Assembly (NCBI GenBank): GCA_965215015.1
Contig: OZ244042.1
Location: 3,456,001-3,520,000 of the forward strand
Length of the DNA stretch: 64,000 nucleotides
Origin: Candidatus Poribacteria bacterium
GTDB taxonomy: Bacteria; Poribacteria; WGA-4E; PCPOR2b
Direction: 5' to 3'
Below the pieces are notes generated by a model. The model was not told the DNA's origin and did not search any database. It worked only from the letters and a program-made list of their open reading frames with translations. This document shows, one piece after another, positions 55,015-64,000 of the stretch. Each line of letters starts with the position of its first letter. Position 1 is the first letter of the stretch. Position numbers and translations under genes: made by a program.

Positions 55015-58000
55015 TTATCGCATCGACATTTTCTCAGAATCGCTCTTGCGCCGGAGGACAACGCCCCATTGACCGACTATCCATAGCGTATCGTCGTTTG
55101 GAGAGCGAACGATAGTGTACAGGTTGTTGGATATATCCGTATGTTCTCGCTCCCATGTTGTGCCGCCATCCATTGAGCGGAGGATTGTGCCGGATGCACC
55201 AACAACATAGATTTCCCGATCTGATAACGCGAGGATGCCGTAAAGTGCTTCGGTGACGCCGCTCGACAGGGCTTCCCACTTAAATCCGCCTCCGGTTGTG
55301 CGGAGGATAAGGCCGTAATCGCCGGCTGCCCAGCCCTTCCGTTTGGTGATGAATGACACTCCATACAGATTGTAGCCGGTGTCGGTTTCATGGTGTTTCC
55401 AATATCCGCCGCCGTTGATTGTTCGCTGGACAATGCCGCTATGTCCAACCGCCCAACCGAGCGGCGCAAATTTCATTTCGACCCTTTCGAGGTCTTTCCC
55501 TGTGGAGGTACGTTGAGGCGTCCAGATGGGACCTCCATCTTGGTTATGGATAATTTGTCCATCCCTGCCGACCGCCCAACCTTCGGAGAAGTCGCCAAAC
55601 GCGACATCGCTGATGGCAAACGGCAACGGTGGGTCTTCCTCAAATAGCCCCGGACGCGTCGGGGTTTGGCCCGCTGACCATTTTACACCGTTGGTAGTAT
55701 ACAGCACTGTGCCATCGCGCCGCATTGACCAGCCCCATCGCGTTGTTCCTTCGGATTCGTCGGCGTTTAACCCCGATACATCGGCAAAATGAATGCCGAC
55801 AAGGGGTTGTTCAGTTCCACTTTTCACTGGTTTCCAAGTCTGCCCACCATCTTGGGTTTCCAGCAGTAAGCCATTATCTCCGGTAATCCAACCGTGCGTG
55901 CTGTCTAGGAAGAGGATAGCGCGGAAGTCATCAAGTTGCTCGCCGAGTTGACGTTCCCACGTTTGTCCGCCATTTTCAGTGTAATAGATATGTCCAGCGT
56001 CGCCAACTGCCCACGCGTGTTGGTCGCCGACAAAGTGCACATTTGTGATTGGCAGCCCAGATTGACGCCAGCCCCGGCGTCGACGGGCTATCGGTTTTTC
56101 TTGGTCTTCTGCCTTTGTGTCTGTTTGTATGCTAGCTGTATCTTCAGTGTCGGTCTCAATTTCGCCTTCAGGCGTGAAACGCCCGGCGCGTGATCGCTGC
56201 TCGCTCAAATCTCTCTGAAAGATGTCGGCAAAATTTTCGTCTAGCGGATTGCTAATCGCTGGTTGTGGCTCTTGAGGTTTATCCGCTTCTGCCTCCATGT
56301 CTGCCTGTTTACTCTGAGCAATGAGTTCCGCCATTGTCTCAAGCCCCACGTAGGTTGGTAGCCAACTCTCGCCTTGGTCGCTTGTCACAAGGATAGCCCC
56401 GTTACGGTTAATTCCCCATGCACGCTGATGGTCGTAGAACTTAATCCGGCGAAGCCCTTCCACCGCGATTTCCGGGAAGAGTTGTTGCCACGTTATGCCG
56501 CCATCCTGCGTGATGAGAGACTTGCCATCTCTGCCCACAATCCAGCCGGACTTCGCATCAGCGAAGTGCACCGCGGCAGCAGGCTGATGGGTTTTATCCT
56601 GAATTTCCCAGTAGTCCCCACCGTTGACAGTATGCAGAATAAGCCCGCCTTCGACCCGTTGAGGGGTAACAGCCCACCCTTCGGTACTATTAATGAAATG
56701 AAGTGCTGTGATTGGTTGGTTTGTCGTCCCGGTTTTCTGACGTTTCCAAGTTACGCCGCCATCCGTGGTGTGGAGCGTTTGTCCCTGATCCGCACCCAGC
56801 CAACCTTCTTGCGTGTTGATAAACTGCATCGCACCAATCCTGCGGAAGTTTTGCACCACCTTTTTGATAACTTGCCACGTTTGCCCACCGTTTTCTGTGC
56901 GAAGCAGCACACCATTTCCGGCAATCCATCCGTGGTCTTCATCGACAAAAGTGATGCGATGCAAATTATCCTTCACGCCACTGTGTTGGGGCATCCACGT
57001 TTTGCCGCCATCCGTCGTGTGAGCAATTACACCTCCGGATCCAACCGCCCACCCGCGTAAAGTAGCGGGTTCATCCGCCGTACGATGGAAATAGGTGTCG
57101 GCAAAATCGGTCTGCCAAGTTGCTTGACGGACGATTTCCCAATGATAGGTAACCTCTTCAACAGTCGGTGGTTCCTCGATAGTTTCGGTGGTTTGCGTTC
57201 GCTCTGCCATAGGGGGGAGTTCGGCTGGAAGCTCTTCCGCGTCAACAGAGTAACGCATCGCAATTCCACCTTTGCCGACAGCGACCATCCCTTCCGGGGA
57301 CAGGGCGAATCCGTATAGGTCGTTCTCCGTATCGCTCTCCTGCGGCTCCCATTTTGTCCCGCCGTTGGTGGTGGTCAGGATAACGCCATCATCCCCTACG
57401 ATGAGACCGTGCTTTGCATCGGCGAAGTAGACCTTATTCAAATTTGCCTCCGTGCCGCTCCATTGGAATTTCCACGTTTTTCCCCCATCTTTGGTGTGCA
57501 AAATTTCTCCAAACTGCCCGGTAACCCAGCCGGTTTTGTTGTCGATAAAGTAGATTGCGTACAATTCATTGTAGGTAGGTGTCTTTTGTTGTGTCCATGT
57601 CAGTCCACCGTTGGCTGTGTGAATGACAATGCCGGGCCAACCGACTGACCAACCTTCCTTATCGTTGAGAAAGAATACCTCTTTGAGCATGTGAAATTCG
57701 CCCGGCGTCTGCTGCACCCATGATTCACCGCCATCAGCGGTATGTAGAACTGTCCCGAGATCGCCAACAACCCAACCTTTTTTTGGGCTGACGAAATAGG
57801 TGCCCCGGAGCGAATACCACCATCCGCTTTTTTGAGTTTCCCAACTCTGCCCACCATCAGCGGTGTGGACAATCATGCCGCGATCGCCGACCGCCCAACC
57901 CTCTAGGTCTGAGACAAAATAGAGGCTTCGGATGTTGTCCCAGATGTCCGTTTGAACCTCAGTCCACGTTTGTCCACCGTCTTGAGTCACAGCGATGGTG

Positions 58001-59073
58001 CCTTTTTCACCGACAGCGATTGCCCGATTCCCATCAGCAAACTGTATCTCCTCAAGGTTGTTGGCGGTAGTACCGCTAGCTATTGTCCACGTCTCCCCGC
58101 CATCTTCTGAGTGCATGATTGTGCCGTGCCAACCTACCGCCCACGCCTCGCTTGGGGTGGTGAACTGAACCCCGGTCAGATTATTTTCGGTACCGCTCTC
58201 TAGCAATCGCCAGTTATCTCCTCCGTCCTCTGTGAACGTGATGAAACCGATATCAGCAACAGCGACGCCGCGTTGGTTGTCCACAAAATGGATACTGTTG
58301 ACAGTGTCCCGAACATGCCCATTAATCAGTGGGATGCGGCTATCCTGACGCGTCCATTCGGCACCCCCATTTGTTGTGTGGAAGATTGATCCGTCAGTCC
58401 CGACAAGCCAACCCTCGTTTTGGCTGATGAAGAAGACCCGCTTGTTATCGTTGATCATCCGGTCGCGTTCGCCCTGGTAACGGTTACTCTGCTGCCGCCA
58501 CGTTTTGCCACCGTCCTCTGTGAAGAGAATCCGATCGTTTGCGCCGACAGTCCAACCGCGGCGTTTGCTAACAAACCAGATGCCGCTGAGTGGAAAATCG
58601 CTGATGTATTCATACTGTTCCCACGTTTTCCCGCCGTTCTTTGTGTACAATACATCGGCATCCTCTCCGACGATCCACCCCTCATCGGAATTTGCAAAGT
58701 GGACATCCCTGAGCATTGCTAAGGTGCCGCTGTCCTGGAGATGCCAGTGGCGTCCGCCGTCATCGGTGGTAGCGATTAACCCCTTATCGCCGACCGCCCA
58801 ACCGTAACGGGGATTGGTGAAATAGACCGCCTTGAAATCACCTTCCGTTTCAGTTTCTTGGCGTTCCCACGTTTTTCCACCATCGTTTGTATGGATGATG
58901 ATTCCCTTTTCGCCGACGATCCATCCGCGTTCGGCATCTGCGAAGTGCAAATCTGTGAAATTGGCTTCCCAATCTGCTTTACGGGTCACGTCTTGCCTAC
59001 AACCGATGAGTATGGTTATGAGTGCGAAAGCAAGTGTTGTCCCTCGGAATATATGTTGGTATGTCTGTTTCAT
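55015..59073 (-). CDS. Large YCF48/BNR (Asp-box) repeat beta-propeller lipoprotein
   Basis: More than 20 repeats of GW.VG..G.I..T.DGG.TW; LIG-C lipobox; AAGGAGG RBS before ATG 59073. Confidence 0.9.
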   Translation of the reverse strand: MKQTYQHIFRGTTLAFALITILIGCRQDVTRKADWEANFTDLHFADAERGWIVGEKGIIIHTNDGGKTWERQETETEGDFKAVYFTNPRYGWAVGDKGLIATTDDGGRHWHLQDSGTLAMLRDVHFANSDEGWIVGEDADVLYTKNGGKTWEQYEYISDFPLSGIWFVSKRRGWTVGANDRILFTEDGGKTWRQQSNRYQGERDRMINDNKRVFFISQNEGWLVGTDGSIFHTTNGGAEWTRQDSRIPLINGHVRDTVNSIHFVDNQRGVAVADIGFITFTEDGGDNWRLLESGTENNLTGVQFTTPSEAWAVGWHGTIMHSEDGGETWTIASGTTANNLEEIQFADGNRAIAVGEKGTIAVTQDGGQTWTEVQTDIWDNIRSLYFVSDLEGWAVGDRGMIVHTADGGQSWETQKSGWWYSLRGTYFVSPKKGWVVGDLGTVLHTADGGESWVQQTPGEFHMLKEVFFLNDKEGWSVGWPGIVIHTANGGLTWTQQKTPTYNELYAIYFIDNKTGWVTGQFGEILHTKDGGKTWKFQWSGTEANLNKVYFADAKHGLIVGDDGVILTTTNGGTKWEPQESDTENDLYGFALSPEGMVAVGKGGIAMRYSVDAEELPAELPPMAERTQTTETIEEPPTVEEVTYHWEIVRQATWQTDFADTYFHRTADEPATLRGWAVGSGGVIAHTTDGGKTWMPQHSGVKDNLHRITFVDEDHGWIAGNGVLLRTENGGQTWQVIKKVVQNFRRIGAMQFINTQEGWLGADQGQTLHTTDGGVTWKRQKTGTTNQPITALHFINSTEGWAVTPQRVEGGLILHTVNGGDYWEIQDKTHQPAAAVHFADAKSGWIVGRDGKSLITQDGGITWQQLFPEIAVEGLRRIKFYDHQRAWGINRNGAILVTSDQGESWLPTYVGLETMAELIAQSKQADMEAEADKPQEPQPAISNPLDENFADIFQRDLSEQRSRAGRFTPEGEIETDTEDTASIQTDTKAEDQEKPIARRRRGWRQSGLPITNVHFVGDQHAWAVGDAGHIYYTENGGQTWERQLGEQLDDFRAILFLDSTHGWITGDNGLLLETQDGGQTWKPVKSGTEQPLVGIHFADVSGLNADESEGTTRWGWSMRRDGTVLYTTNGVKWSAGQTPTRPGLFEEDPPLPFAISDVAFGDFSEGWAVGRDGQIIHNQDGGPIWTPQRTSTGKDLERVEMKFAPLGWAVGHSGIVQRTINGGGYWKHHETDTGYNLYGVSFITKRKGWAAGDYGLILRTTGGGFKWEALSSGVTEALYGILALSDREIYVVGASGTILRSMDGGTTWEREHTDISNNLYTIVRSPNDDTLWIVGQWGVVLRRKSDSEKMSMR

Positions 59074-59812
59074 TTGATTTTTCCTCCTTGAAAGTGTCAT
59101 AACGCTCTCAGAAACACGGAAAGCCCGATATCCAGTGGCATGCCAAATCGGCTTGAGTCCATCGTAACTCGACGGTTGAGCGGAGAACGATGGTGAAAAC
59201 GCTTCCCAAAATTCTCGATTCTTTGGACGTAACAGCTTCCTAAATGTTGAAGTGATCAATCCGTTTCTATCTTAATCTTACAAAGTATAACATAACCGGG
59301 CCCTAAACCCTATATCAAAATTTGCTGAACGGGAGTGTTTGTCCGATCGTTCGGCTAGAAATTGCAAAGTAGGTCAAGGTTCCTCGATGAAACGTCAGGC
59401 ATTACCTCCAGCGGTTTACCTGTTTTCTCATCTACTCGCTTGGGTATTTATATGATTCATCGGTATTCTTCTGTTCCTGTTGGATTTGACATTCCAACGA
59501 GTGTGAGGCAGTTGGAGGGACCTGCCTTTTTGCTTGCATTCCAACAATGAGTGTGCTAGGATGAACACACTATCCTTGGCGAAGTGATACAAGTTGTGCA
59601 CATCTCATTGAGAAACGTTCTCAGACTGGATTTACAGGGCTTAAAATTGGTGGGATTGATGATGGGGTTGAGAATCTTTAAGTATTGATAATAACCGATA
59701 GCATATAGAATCAGAATCGCAGCAGCGTCGGCATGCGTCGCTGGTAGAACGGATTAAATACCGAAAGGCGAGGAGACAATATGCGTTTTTTCGTGAACTC
59801 AGGCTTCGGTTC

Positions 59813-60073
59813 TTGATGGTTTCGTTATGTGAGTCTTTATGTGAGTCTTTCAAAACAGATTATGACATGCGCGCCAAAGCCTTGTGTTATTGTGCTGTAT
59901 GTTGTGACGAGCTATGCTACAATGAGCGTGCCGAATGTTATTTTGAGAAAGCAGAAGAAAGTGGTTTTGTCAATGACCCCCAACCTCATTACTTAGGAGC
60001 AATAGTTCAAAAGTCGGAAGATCTCAAAAAACGGGTTATAGAAAAACTTGGTATTACTGAAGATCCTGAGTAA
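59813..60073 (+). CDS. Hypothetical protein or fragment
   Basis: 86-aa ORF with weak TPR-like character and no clear RBS. Confidence 0.3.
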   Translation: MMVSLCESLCESFKTDYDMRAKALCYCAVCCDELCYNERAECYFEKAEESGFVNDPQPHYLGAIVQKSEDLKKRVIEKLGITEDPE

Positions 60074-60302
60074 ACCGCAACAACAACGAGCGGGAGGGAT
60101 TATGAACGAATTGATGATTCAAGATGGGGGAACGTTGGCAATAAGGGGTAATAATAAAATCAGAATATTGGTAATATGGTGATGCGTTGCTGGTGGAGAT
60201 GCAGGTCGTTGGCAGGTGGAAATCCTCATAGATGCCTGCCCACTATGCCAAAGCAGAGTTGGCGGAACGGAGCGCAATGGACCGGTTTAGGGCCGGAAAG
60301 AG

Positions 60303-60653
60303 GTGATAATTTTGGATTTATACCTGCTTATGGGGGTTGGTGGTATCGCTTGGAGTGGTTCAATCAGGATTTCTGAATCCTATTCAAATCCTCCTACTGT
60401 TTCTCCTTTGGAATGTCCGCCTTGGGCAGGTCGTCCAACGGGCGTAAAGTTTATAACGATATTTAATATCGCTATGATTGTTTTACCCTTCCTGAACGGA
60501 TATATCTTGGGTGGTGTGCTAGGCATGTTCATTAGCATTGCTGGCACGTGGGTGGTTATGAAACTTGTTCGACATTTTTTCACTTACAGGTTTGAATACG
60601 CTATCCGAGTGTTTTTTTTTTGGTTCGCCGTATGTAATCTGGACTTTGGTTAA
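60303..60653 (+). CDS. Hypothetical membrane protein
   Basis: AGAGG RBS, hydrophobic segments and a T10 run near the 3' end. Confidence 0.5.
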   Translation: MIILDLYLLMGVGGIAWSGSIRISESYSNPPTVSPLECPPWAGRPTGVKFITIFNIAMIVLPFLNGYILGGVLGMFISIAGTWVVMKLVRHFFTYRFEYAIRVFFFWFAVCNLDFG

Positions 60654-60705
60654 TTTGGGTCGGCTTTAGTTGACTAATCCTAAAAGTGAAAGTGTGCGTA
60701 ACATC

Positions 60706-61044
60706 ATGGGGCATGAAAACGCTGGTTGGGTTGAGGCGGTTGGTACTGGTGTGAAATCGGTGAAACCCGGTGACGATCAAACTGCACCTTCCAACCTACT
60801 GGTGTGCACCCAACTTCTCCTATATGATGGCTGAGGATACCCACCGTGAACTTTTGACGGTTCGAGGAATCCACGAGTCACGGTTCGTTGGAAAGATCAT
60901 TTCGCTGCGAGGGCAATTGAGGGGGGTGTGAACGCTGGCAAATCCTTCTCAGAGGCTTTTCCGGATGAAGTATCTGAAAACCTGTGTCAACTCAGCGATC
61001 TCTTCCAGGATGAAATTAGTGTCAAACTTGCTGAGGGCGCATAA
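60706..61044 (+). pseudogene. Fused remnants of a Zn-alcohol dehydrogenase and a DUF59-type metal-sulfur assembly protein
   Basis: MGHENAGWVEAVGTGVKSVKPGD, then in other frames LHLPTYWCAPNFSYMMAED and DHFAARAIEGGVNAGKSFSEAFP. Confidence 0.7.
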
Positions 61045-61104
61045 AACCGCAGTGCAATCGGCAACCGTGCAACATCAACTTGACCATTGTTGCGAGGAAC
61101 GCCT

Positions 61105-62214
61105 ATGATCGCGGCGCATACCGATGTCGTTGGAAGTTTGCTCCGTCCGCCTGAACTGCTCAAAGCGAGGAACGAGATTGCCGCGGGCAAAATGACGCCA
61201 GCGGCGTTCAAGGCTATCGAAGATCAAGCAGTTGATAAAGCTGTCGCCCTTCAGGAAGGGGTGGGCTTGGAGGTCGTTACCGATGGTGAAATGCGTCGGT
61301 TATCTTTCCAGAGCCAGATGACAGAAGCGGTCGCCGGTTTCGGTAAATATAACCTCAATGCCTTCCTCTGGGGTGATTGGCGCGGCGACGGAGGTGCGGG
61401 GAGCTTGAGTATAGAACGCCCCAAGGGTTTGGGTGTTGTCGGCAAGCTCAACCGCAAGCGTCATCTTTCAGGGGAAGAGTTCACCTACCTGCGAGCGCGG
61501 ACGACTCGCATACCGAAGATTACGTTGCCTAGTCCCAGCATGTGGACAAACTTCTGGTCGTCAGAGCACTCTCCGCCCGCCTATCCTACGCTCGAGAGTT
61601 TTCTTGTGGATGTCGTTGACCTTATACGGGGCGAGGTCGCCGAGTTGGTCCGACTGGGTGCAACCTACATTCAGCTGGATGCTCCCCATTATCCGTTGCT
61701 ACTCGATCCTAAGACTAGAGCTTTCTACGAAAGACAAGGCTGGGGGCTTGATCAGTGGCTGGACCGAGGCGTTGAGATGGACAACGCTGTGATTGGCGAT
61801 TTTTCAGATGTGACGTTTGGCTTTCACCTCTGACGCGGCAATCAGAGCAGCCGGTGGTTGGTCGAAGGAGGTTATGAGCTGATAGCCAAACCGATTTTCC
61901 AAGGCATCCGGGCCCAGCGTCTACTGCTTGAATACGATGACGAACGCTCCGGTTCATTTGAACCGTTGAAGGAGATTCCTGATGACAAGATTGTCGTTTT
62001 AGGGTTGGTTACGACGAAAACGCCACGCCGAGAAACGCCGGAAGCACTCACCGCACGCGTTAAGGAAGCCAGCCAATTTGTGCCGATAGAACGGCTTGCA
62101 TTGAGTCCACAGTGTGGCTTTTCAACTTCGGTTGTTGGCAATCGCATTACAGTAGAAGACCAGAGGCATAAGTTGTCGGTGGTTGTTGAGACTGCTAGAA
62201 GGGTGTGGGGCTAA
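61105..62214 (+). CDS. Cobalamin-independent methionine synthase II-like Zn enzyme with in-frame UGA (probable selenocysteine)
   Basis: VGSLLRP, TDGEMRR, IQLDAP, H-L-UGA-R-G-N, LLEYD and LSPQCGF; ORFs 61087-61833 and 61858-62214 are in frame; SECIS-like hairpin at 61845-61863. Confidence 0.85.
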
Positions 62215-62225
62215 ACTGGGGAGAC

Positions 62226-62312
62226 TCATGTTAAAGGAAAGTGTAAAACGCTAAGAGCTCCCAAGTTTTTCCGAAAAAATTCGGGAGCTGTTGCACGATT
62301 TCTTAACATGAG
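62226..62312. repeat. ~85-bp inverted-repeat (MITE/REP-like) element
   Basis: CTCATGTTAA...TTGCACGATTTCTTAACATGAG; related copies at ~47280-47365 and ~18314-18385. Confidence 0.7.
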
Positions 62313-62414
62313 CCACTGGAGAAAACAGACAAGGTACACCTAGCATCAGATTAAATGGTGCTTTTTGAAGCGTACATTAAAAAACATGAATACGAGTTCA
62401 ATTGGAGGAAGGAT

Positions 62415-62621
62415 ATGGCGCAAACTCCTAAAAACCATCAAACCCGAACTGAATCTATTGGGAAATGGACAATTCGGATTAGATCTTACCAACTCGGTGA
62501 TGTGTATATCTGTACTGTAGACAATGTGAGCCCCGGTGCCGTCATTGCTCGATCTACGGCTGCAGCCCGCGCGGAGGCAGAATCCGAGGCGTTGGCGCAA
62601 GCGAAAGCCGCGATGGCATAA
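62415..62621 (+). CDS. Small hypothetical protein
   Basis: GGAGG RBS, 68 aa, SYQLGDVYICTVDNVSPGAVIAR. Confidence 0.65.
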   Translation: MAQTPKNHQTRTESIGKWTIRIRSYQLGDVYICTVDNVSPGAVIARSTAAARAEAESEALAQAKAAMA

Positions 62622-62745
62622 TCGCGTTATACGAAATTGGCTCATGGAAAAAGAAAGTGCAAAGCGCAAAGAGAAGCCGAGCCTTGCCGAAAAAACTCGG
62701 TTTTTGGTGTCTTTGTAGAAAGTAAGAAAAGTTGGGAGCGATAGG

Positions 62746-63807
62746 ATGAACCTAAATAAGTTGTCACGAAAACACACCCTCACAAGTCTGGCAAAAACAT
62801 GCGGGTGAGCGGCGAAGGTCAGTCCAGTTGGACTAGGAGAACTCTTGGCAAAATTGCCGAAGAAAAAGGACCCGAATCTGCTCGTTGGATTTGAAACGAG
62901 CGACGATGCCGGCATCTACCGCCTCGATGATGAAATGGCACTGGTTACGACCGCCGATTTTATCACGCCGCCGGTGGATGACCCGTATCTGTTTGGTCAG
63001 ATTGCTGCAGCCAATTCAATCAGTGATATTTATGCAATGGGCGGCAGACCTGTGACCTGTCTGAATCTGGTGGGGTTTCCGGCGGATAAATTGGGTCCAG
63101 AAATCCTGCACGGAATTGTCGAAGGCGCGTTGAGCAAAATCACCGAAGCCGGCGCAGTCTTGGCGGGCGGGCATACGACCGACGATGAGGAGCCCAAGTT
63201 TGGGTTATCGGTCACTGGGATTGTGCATCCGGAAAAATATTGGCGAAATGTCGGTGCGGAACCGGGGGATGTACTGATCTTGACCAAACCGATTGGCAGC
63301 GGCGTGATTTTTAACGCCAATCTGAAAAACTGGGTGTCAGACCAAGCGTTAGACGAATGTATACAGACTCTCACGATGCTCAACAAGCAGGCGGCGTCGG
63401 TTATGGCTGACTTTGACATCCATGCGGTAACGGACATCACCGGATTCGGATTGGGTGGGCATGCATTGGAAATGGCGGAAGGGTCGGTTGTGACTTTGGA
63501 AATTCACACCGACGCCGTGCCGATTATGCGCGAGGCACTAGAGATGTACCAAAAAGGGATGCGGACCGGTGTCAACGCCGCCAATCGAGCCTTGATTGAA
63601 GATTCCGCACGTTTTGAAAAATCGCTCCCTCCATGGCATGAGGAAATCTTCGTTGATCCGCAGACCAGCGGTGGATTGCTGATGTCTGTGCCGGCTGCTC
63701 AAAGCGAATCGCTGTTGACGGTTCTACACAATGGGGGTGTGGCAAAAGCACAGGTTATTGGAGTTGTGAAGTCCTTTGTCGAACCGAACTATCTTGTTTT
63801 TGTATAA
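62746..63807 (+). CDS. selD: Selenophosphate synthetase (SelD/SenC), selenocysteine-containing
   Basis: MNLNK...LTSLAKTCG-UGA-AAKVSP is in frame with ORF 62845-63807 (DDAGIY, AANSISDIYAMGG, DITGFGL, DPQTSGGLL); hairpin AGTCC-AGTT-GGACT 12 nt after the UGA. Confidence 0.93.
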
Positions 63808-63810
63808 ACT

Positions 63811-64000
63811 ATGAAAATCTGCTTAATTACCCCCGCCCCGACATACTCTCGGAAGGGCAACCGCGTGACAGCCCTGCGTTGGGCTCATATCTTACGAGAA
63901 CTAGGCCACCGCGTCATTATCGTTCAAGAATATCAAGGAGAGCGATGCGACCTGTTAGTCGCGCTCCACGCGCGCCGCAGCCACGCTTCTATTGCGCGTT
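63811..64000 (+). CDS. senB: Selenosugar synthase SenB-type glycosyltransferase, N-terminus (runs off window)
   Basis: Not in ORF track. [31 protein letters not shown]...[12 protein letters not shown]; directly after selD. Confidence 0.85.

Follow-up and report, generated by a model that had tools for sequence, protein, structure and literature searches.

Is a UGA codon in the middle of a methionine synthase-like gene a stop, or is it read as selenocysteine (Sec), and what would Sec do at a position where relatives of the enzyme hold a zinc-binding cysteine? With few exceptions, the selenoproteins known so far are redox enzymes. The question is raised by a gene in a stretch of 64,000 nucleotides (the window) from a Candidatus Poribacteria bacterium (GenBank assembly GCA_965215015.1, contig OZ244042.1, positions 3,456,001 to 3,520,000 of the forward strand). 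An earlier note, made from the letters of the window alone, had proposed that this gene, related to the methionine synthase MetE, encodes a selenoprotein in which Sec serves as a zinc ligand. As judged from sequence comparisons, the MetE-like gene is almost certainly a real selenoprotein gene. The whole reading, an intact Sec-decoded MetE-like enzyme with Sec243 in its zinc site, is very likely.

A MetE-like reading frame with a single UGA

The frame opens with an ATG at 61105, preceded five bases upstream by GAGGAA (61094-61099), and ends with a TAA (62212-62214). Its sole in-frame stop is codon 243, a TGA (61831-61833). Calling of open reading frames (ORFs) with translation table 11 yields two pieces from this gene (61087-61833 and 61858-62214). 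Such a result fits a true stop, in which case the locus would be a pseudogene, or a split gene with products of 242 and 118 amino acids (aa), the second starting from the TTG at 61858. We regard this explanation as extremely improbable, on several grounds given with the results below.

The assignment to the MetE family made in the earlier note holds. The read-through product matches the Pfam model of the MetE catalytic domain (PF01717, Meth_synt_2) with 58.3 bits, for a gathering threshold of 21. It aligns end to end (residues 5–369, E 5e-51) with the closest solved structure, the uncharacterised Listeria protein 1ypx, and a profile of 12 sequences improves this match to E 1e-59. MesD (3rpd) is a distant match (E 1.8e-10). 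An AlphaFold model of the protein (predicted local distance difference test, pLDDT, 80; predicted template modelling score, pTM, 0.85) was superposed by Foldseek on 1ypx, on MesD and on MetE C-terminal domains, with template modelling (TM) scores of 0.70–0.76. The alignment to 1ypx has 27% identity, and the MetE domains matched are those of Neurospora, Candida, Thermotoga and Arabidopsis (TMq 0.72–0.76).

The product is 369 aa long, versus about 750 aa for the canonical two-domain MetE, and the folate-binding N-terminal half is absent. The canonical model TIGR01371 gives 35.5 bits, where more than 930 are needed, and is matched over model positions 428–601 only. The closest NCBIfam models, the short methionine synthases PRK06520 (235.2 bits versus a cut-off of 313) and PRK06233 (225 versus 576), are also missed. 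The protein is therefore a superfamily member that lies outside both curated models. To our knowledge, no 1YPX-type member of the "cobalamin-independent methionine synthase II family" has a proven substrate.

No full-length MetE was found in the genome. Two further core MetE-like paralogues are present, and MetH-like homocysteine, pterin, B12 and activation domains occur in separate frames (G000:C1:381126-390464 and 525191-526048). Given these paralogues and MetH-like pieces, the gene cannot be claimed as the sole methionine synthase of this bacterium, nor can a case be made that it is essential.

The UGA is conserved and alternates with cysteine codons

The UGA is not peculiar to this assembly. 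All 20 loci of the genus have TGA at codon 243. Among 176 genomes of the phylum, 23 match the protein at E<=1e-100, and TGA is found in 23/23. In genus g1, these carriers are the genome itself and 19/19 others; g2, g4 and g14 contribute one genome apiece. Genera g3, g5 and g6 and the other Poribacteria families gave no match at this threshold.

A wider scan of bacteria and archaea, with one genome per species, turned up at least 573 relatives, and the best 80 loci were kept. Among these best 80, codon 243 is TGA in 41 and TGT or TGC in 39. Homologues with aligned UGA/Cys pairs, by which the earlier note had suggested checking its claim, are thus plentiful. About ten phyla have the TGA. Outside Poribacteria, it is found in Chloroflexota, Gemmatimonadota, Acidobacteriota, Latescibacterota, Bacteroidota, Myxococcota/"Deltaproteobacteria", Binatota and Thermodesulfobacteriota. 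Neither TAA nor TAG occurs at codon 243 in any of the loci read (genus, phylum and best 80). When the Sec/Cys label was followed on a quick maximum-likelihood tree (83 rows, without L059, whose sequence is too short), at least eight changes were counted, at least three of them forced by well-supported branches. A true stop would hardly be the same codon, always TGA, in 23/23 Poribacteria genomes and in many phyla, nor would it be replaced by Cys in the homologues that have no TGA.

Constraint on both sides of the UGA

Of the 20 genus orthologues, 13 served to estimate selection. The start-motif pattern missed six, and one more was set aside for its different length. The ratio of nonsynonymous to synonymous change (dN/dS) is 0.109 for codons 1–242 and 0.104 for codons 244–367. 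Selection is therefore not relaxed downstream of the UGA, and this equal constraint on both sides argues against a true stop. Synonymous diversity (pS) tells the same. The five lowest 9-codon windows of the whole gene all fall within codons 242–254, with pS of 0.06–0.10 versus a mean of 0.41. Such suppression of synonymous change directly after the TGA is not what a true stop would leave. It is the footprint expected of an RNA element laid over codons.

A second region of low synonymous diversity, next in rank, was seen at 61489-61524 (codons 129–140, pS 0.11–0.16 versus the same mean).

A hairpin downstream of the UGA

A hairpin after an 11-nt spacer had been described from the letters alone, and folding recovers it. 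It begins 11 nt past the TGA, represents the lowest-energy structure of the 40 nt that follow the UGA (−8.3 kcal/mol), and has 5+2 pairs, one G-G mismatch and a GGU loop at a UGA-to-loop distance of 19 nt. The bacterial selenocysteine insertion sequence (bSECIS) model, as set out in the passages of a 2026 review used here (PMC13188914), asks for a loop of 3–9 nt, a stem of at least 4 bp, a UGA-to-loop distance of 16–37 nt and a minimum free energy of −7.5 kcal/mol or lower. In the loop, the first two positions are G, followed by G or U. The hairpin lies within all of these limits, with its 3-nt GGU loop, its 19 nt and its −8.3 kcal/mol. When 60 nt are folded, a different structure is obtained (z-score −0.45).

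Conservation of the element among Sec-form homologues is more informative. Across 42 different sequences of the Sec form, the share of paired cells is 88.1%, versus 84.8 +/− 0.6 in shuffles, and 0/500 shuffles reach the observed pairing or covariation score. In the Cys-form control (39 sequences), 177/500 shuffles reach the observed pairing. The pair 18-30, formed by the third positions of the Gly248 and Leu252 codons, is kept in 38/42 Sec forms, with five changes on both sides (variants G-C, A-U, G-U and U-G), versus 22/38 Cys forms. The Arg250 codon supplies the middle base of the loop with its third position. Among 41 Sec forms, 33 have G there, 8 have T and none has C; among the 39 Cys forms, 29 have C. 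The above-chance support for the predicted hairpin is this comparative evidence, not its folding energy.

The Sec machinery

The genome is a single 5.94-Mb contig. It holds selA (610 bits), selB (371 bits) and the gene for tRNA-Sec side by side at C1:4763111-4766646, and a Sec-type selD whose start, at 62746, is 531 nt downstream of the MetE-like gene, as the earlier note had it (about 0.5 kb). With selA, selB, tRNA-Sec and this selD, the machinery for Sec is present in full. In other lineages, selB scored above its cut-off in 5/5 sampled genomes with the TGA form, a further point against a true stop, and in 3/5 genomes with the Cys form.

The predicted zinc site and the substrate

In the parts of PMC7857596 that concern E. 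coli MetE, the zinc ligands are given as His641, Cys643, Glu665 and Cys726, the homocysteine-binding residues as Ser433, Glu484 and Asp599, and the H-I-C motif of MesD (3rpd) is said to correspond to the zinc ligand Cys643. The UGA had been placed exactly at the Cys of the H-x-C-R-G-N motif. Alignment bears this out: codon 243 faces the Cys of H-I-C-R-G-N in 1ypx and of H-I-C in 3rpd. The same frame then runs on to LLEYD, with Glu276, and to SPQCGF, with Cys337. In 3rpd, Cys337 faces the Cys of "nCGm", and in Candida MetE that of "PDCGL"; Glu276 would be the counterpart of MetE Glu665, from the order of the motifs.

H241, C/U243, E276 and C337 are invariant together in 121/121 rows (the query and its 120 best full-length homologues). 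Position 243 is Cys in 120/120 of these homologues, which are 71–77% identical to the query; as full-length proteins in databases cannot carry a TGA, this set is Cys-only by construction. An enzyme split at the TGA would lose one zinc ligand, which again speaks against a true stop.

Sec243 stands at the position of a zinc ligand, and probably acts as one. It might instead be the reactive residue itself, for example a carrier of methyl or selenium through Se-C, Se-S or Se-Se intermediates, in a subfamily that has departed from MetE in its chemistry. Sec is the reactive centre in most known selenoproteins, according to the passages of PMC13188914 cited here, and the repeated Cys/Sec switching seen on the tree (at least eight changes, at least three forced) is a pattern of catalytic residues. 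We nevertheless hold a mainly reactive Sec to be improbable: the four zinc-site positions are invariant together in all 121 sequences, the H-x-C aligns with that of zinc-bound solved homologues, and the sequence gives no hint of a resolving Cys near position 243.

As to the substrate, Ser11, Glu62 and Asp192 are invariant in a 12-sequence alignment, and in Candida MetE they face the GS, GE and DEP motifs. From the identity of these motifs, they would be the counterparts of MetE Ser433, Glu484 and Asp599. A methyl acceptor of the homocysteine type has, in our estimate, about an even chance of being correct. The features of the locus are collected in Table 1.

Table 1. Coordinates of the MetE-like gene, its predicted functional elements and the genes that follow it in the window.
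Feature	Positions	Strand	Remarks
MetE-like gene ("cobalamin-independent methionine synthase II family")	61105..62214	+	369 codons, one UGA predicted to be read through as Sec
H-x-C motif with UGA at the Cys: His241-Leu242-Sec243 (CAC CTC TGA)	61825..61833	+	context F-H-L-U-R-G-N
Predicted SECIS-type hairpin in the coding sequence	61845..61863	+	GAGCAGCC 61845-61852, loop GGU 61853-61855, GGTTGGTC 61856-61863
Glu276 (LLEYD), predicted third zinc ligand	61930..61932	+	invariant in 121/121 aligned sequences
Cys337 (SPQCGF), predicted fourth zinc ligand	62113..62115	+	invariant in 121/121 aligned sequences
Small conserved gene	62415..62621	+	68 aa, counted from an ATG after GGAGGA; precedes selD
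selD/senC, selenophosphate synthetase	62746..63807	+	TIGR00476, 375 bits versus cut-off 125; Sec codon 21 (TGA 62806-62808, G-U-A-A-K)
senB (selenosugar synthase), start	63811..64000	+	TIGR04348, 405 bits versus cut-off 300; continues past the window end

Genes downstream and a second candidate selenoprotein

The senBC neighbourhood named in the earlier note is there, with senB starting directly behind selD/senC. In the genus, selD lies within 1.5 kb of the MetE-like gene in 18/20 loci.

The complete senB (L039:812-1762) has an in-frame TGA of its own at codon 145 (L039:1244-1246), 243 nt beyond the end of the window. This codon is TGA in 7/28 senB-holding genomes of the Poribacteria family, across five genera. 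The 9/9 other loci of the genus, G065 and L087 have TGT or TGC instead, and L127 has a Leu codon. A stretch of 20 nt could fold into a hairpin (stem GUCC/GGAC, loop CGUGAA); it hardly varies among the seven TGA-form senB genes and shows synonymous variation in the Cys forms. SenB thus looks like a second uncatalogued Sec/Cys selenoprotein.

The Latescibacterota SenB (L087:9430-10380) has an in-frame TGA elsewhere, at codon 130, which aligns to Ala in Poribacteria SenB, its position 145 being Cys. This TGA may be Sec, an error or a sign of decay.

Between the MetE-like gene and selD, the small gene of 68 codons has tblastn matches of 74–92% identity in 19/20 genus loci. It has no Pfam or NCBIfam match, and an Atlas search returned hypothetical proteins only. 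It is flanked on both sides (62215-62320 and 62640-62725) by an imperfectly palindromic intergenic repeat, made of a core GAAAGTGYAAARCGCWAAGAG and a variable hairpin. The strict GAAAGTGYAAARCGCWAAGAG core occurs in seven copies in the genome.

Association with selenoneine genes

In Poribacteria, sen genes, including selD, lie within 6 kb of the MetE-like gene in 9/9 loci, and the genome studied here also has senA (NF041186, 517 bits versus 420) and egtD, 215 kb upstream. Outside the phylum, sen genes are found within 6 kb in 3/71 loci. In L087 (Latescibacterota, Sec form), genes for the MetE-like protein, a transglutaminase-like protein, senA and senB follow each other on one strand. In L127 (Thiohalorhabdus, Cys form), the stop of the MetE-like gene overlaps the start of an oxidoreductase-SelD fusion by 4 nt, and senB and senA adjoin. 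In L104 (Gemmatimonadetes, Cys form), the order is egtD, MetE-like gene, a putative selenate ABC transporter (TIGR04553), selD and senA. An adjacency to sen genes in four phyla, with Sec and Cys forms alike, is by a rough estimate far above chance. It lends indirect support to the suggestion of the earlier note that the enzyme may act on selenium metabolites.

These associations bring in a different physiological role, which we put forward tentatively and consider rather unlikely: the enzyme could be a dedicated accessory of selenoneine (sen) metabolism and not a general methionine synthase. The chemistry would overlap with that of the zinc enzyme described above, and the role would differ. 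A plausible version is that it converts homocysteine to methionine, feeding the three methylations dependent on S-adenosylmethionine that make hercynine. A bolder alternative is that it methylates or demethylates a selenium or histidine-betaine metabolite (selenoneine, a selenosugar or hercynine). Possibly it handles seleno-amino acids.

Besides the sen genes near the MetE-like gene in all nine Poribacteria loci and three others, and besides senA and egtD in the same genome, the fate of the upstream genes favours such a role. In the other eight Poribacteria loci examined (without L058), intact genes for a zinc alcohol dehydrogenase, a FeS_assembly_P-domain protein and an Amidohydro_2 protein lie upstream of the MetE-like gene. 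In the genome studied here, all three have decayed: the amidohydrolase is gone, there is no long ORF in 59260-61087, and the block of MetE-like gene, selD and senB has been kept. Furthermore, in an Anaerolineales locus (L074:4409-5965), a gene for a quaternary-amine methyltransferase of the MttB family (704 bits) lies directly upstream of the Sec-form gene.

Other facts argue against a dedicated role. No sen gene was found within 6 kb in 68/71 non-Poribacteria loci, whose neighbours are mixed. Two Poribacteria genera, g5 (4/4 genomes) and g6 (1/1), hold senB, and the MetE-like protein finds no counterpart in them at E<=1e-100, so that the sen pathway can do without this gene. Selenoprotein genes often cluster with genes of the Sec machinery such as selD, and the adjacency in Poribacteria could reflect shared selenium regulation. 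Finally, the alpha-amino-acid motifs that are kept would fit homocysteine better than a trimethylammonium betaine.

We therefore see only a limited chance that the Sec/Cys MetE-like enzyme is a working part of bacterial selenium small-molecule metabolism, with a zinc-selenolate that adds a methyl group to, or removes it from, a selenium or histidine-betaine metabolite (selenoneine, the selenosugar, hercynine or selenohomocysteine), or that supplies methionine for hercynine synthesis. If this were true, the MetE-like protein, Sec-SelD and Sec-SenB would form a three-selenoprotein operon, and the MetE-like protein would be the first enzyme known with Sec as a ligand of a catalytic zinc.

Other neighbours

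Remnants of the decayed upstream genes can still be recognised at 60706-61005, as a 23-aa piece of the zinc alcohol dehydrogenase and frameshifted pieces of the FeS_assembly_P-domain protein. Further upstream, 55015-59259 on the minus strand encodes a 1414-aa protein made of many "DGG(K/E/Q)TW" repeats, which we take to be possibly of the BNR type.

For the neighbour analysis, 824 ORFs of the 80 loci were clustered, and 118 adjoining ORFs of the 71 non-Poribacteria loci were compared with Pfam. TauE/SafE proteins account for 10 of the 118, all in the deltaproteobacterial/Binatia Sec clade, and isochorismatases for two. Amidohydro_2 neighbours occur in four other lineages, in addition to the eight Poribacteria loci examined. 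In an Ardenticatenaceae locus (L081:4536-5816), a methylaspartate-ammonia-lyase-like (MAAL-like) gene lies directly upstream of the Sec-form gene. Neighbour cluster 3 was discarded; it includes opposite-strand ORFs that overlap the MetE-like gene, among them its representative (L069:5368-7452, minus strand), and are probably antisense.

Weighing the assignment

Several observations weigh against an intact Sec-decoded MetE-like enzyme. The first ones concern the hairpin. Its stability over 40 nt is that of shuffled sequence (z-score 0.07). Its core stem (pairs 19–22 with 26–29) is largely set by the conserved Ser-Arg-Trp-Leu codons and forms in Cys genes too. Since this stem is common to both forms, the evidence for an RNA element comes down to the loop base, the pair 18-30 and the suppressed synonymous change. 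The compared sequences are also mutually related, so that the shuffle controls overstate significance. A scan of the window from 59000 to 64000 with Rfam at E<=10 gave chance-level matches and no SECIS family.

The others concern the enzyme. With scores under the cut-offs of the named NCBIfam methionine synthases, no function can be transferred from those models. The neighbours in the 71 non-Poribacteria loci are very mixed, and no pathway is common across lineages. Lastly, one orthologue (L030/L059, in G005) has a second TGA, at the invariant Arg130 (CGA to TGA). A sequencing error or an inactivating mutation is the probable cause, and that gene may be dead.

The reading of the gene as a selenoprotein gene with Sec in the zinc site remains the one we prefer, and the following mechanism is proposed. 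UGA 243 would be decoded as Sec by SelA, SelB and tRNA-Sec, guided by the GGU-loop hairpin within the coding sequence. The Sec decoding mechanism itself is ordinary, and a codon-imposed inner stem may have eased repeated conversion of Cys to Sec. The product would be a single-domain MetE-like triosephosphate isomerase (TIM) barrel of the 1YPX type, without the folate-binding N-terminal domain. Sec243 would replace the first Cys of the His-x-Cys ... Glu ... Cys zinc site, and the resulting Zn(His, Sec, Glu, Cys) centre would bind and deprotonate a thiol or selenol substrate. Once activated by zinc, this thiol or selenol would receive an alkyl group, most likely methyl, as homocysteine does in MetE. 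The substrate would be expected to carry an alpha-amino-acid group, like homocysteine or selenohomocysteine, since all three motifs for homocysteine binding are retained. As a donor, the selenolate is softer than the thiolate, and it would tune how readily the zinc-bound nucleophile reacts.

Comparison with known systems

The MetE-like protein shares with 1YPX-type proteins its length, its fold and the H-x-C-R-G-N, LEYD and SPQCGF motifs; it differs from them by having Sec in place of the first Cys. With the MetE catalytic domain and the core synthases MesA–MesD, as they appear in the passages of PMC7857596, it has in common the TIM barrel, the His/Cys/Glu/Cys site and the three homocysteine-binding motifs. 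As in the core synthases, the folate-binding N-terminal half is missing. The same passages state that core methionine synthases probably use corrinoid proteins, and they make no mention of Sec at the Cys643 position.

The review PMC13188914 describes itself, in the passages cited, as the most comprehensive inventory, with 119 prokaryotic selenoprotein families. Neither the MetE-like/PF01717 family nor SenB is in its Table 1, which gives these 119 families. A MetE-like selenoprotein was not found in the main texts of PMC9312934, PMC12013277, PMC2398784 and PMC1976440, whose supplementary lists may bear on novelty, and wider literature searches returned no such family. On the sequence evidence, the selenoprotein family is new; put more precisely, a known enzyme superfamily here has a variant with Sec at a zinc-ligand position. 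Gene callers systematically split or truncate such genes, which makes both proteomes and counts of selenoproteins incorrect where this family is concerned.

The order of senC/selD and senB directly after the MetE-like gene recalls the sen cluster senA-senB-senC (Kayrouz et al. 2022, bioRxiv 10.1101/2022.04.13.486033). The main text of that paper, as distinct from its supplementary figures, does not contain "methionine synthase", "MetE" or "methyltransferase". The placement of MetE-like genes in sen clusters, together with the Sec/Cys variation of SenB, points to an undescribed link between Sec decoding and selenoneine biosynthesis.

Known bacterial selenoproteins, as characterised in the passages of PMC13188914 considered here, likewise have a SECIS within the ORF, with a G-G/U loop 16–37 nt past the UGA, Cys homologues, and SelA, SelB and tRNA-Sec. 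The closest parallel in chemistry is with metal-binding selenoproteins, formate dehydrogenase (Mo/W) and the [NiFeSe] hydrogenase (Ni), where, according to the same source, Sec is in the coordination sphere of the metal. In contrast to these, the metal here would be a redox-inert zinc engaged in alkyl transfer and not a redox centre. A Sec that coordinates a redox-inert catalytic zinc would widen the known uses of this amino acid, and the two forms of the enzyme would offer a natural Sec/Cys pair in which to study how ligands tune the reactivity of zinc-thiolates.

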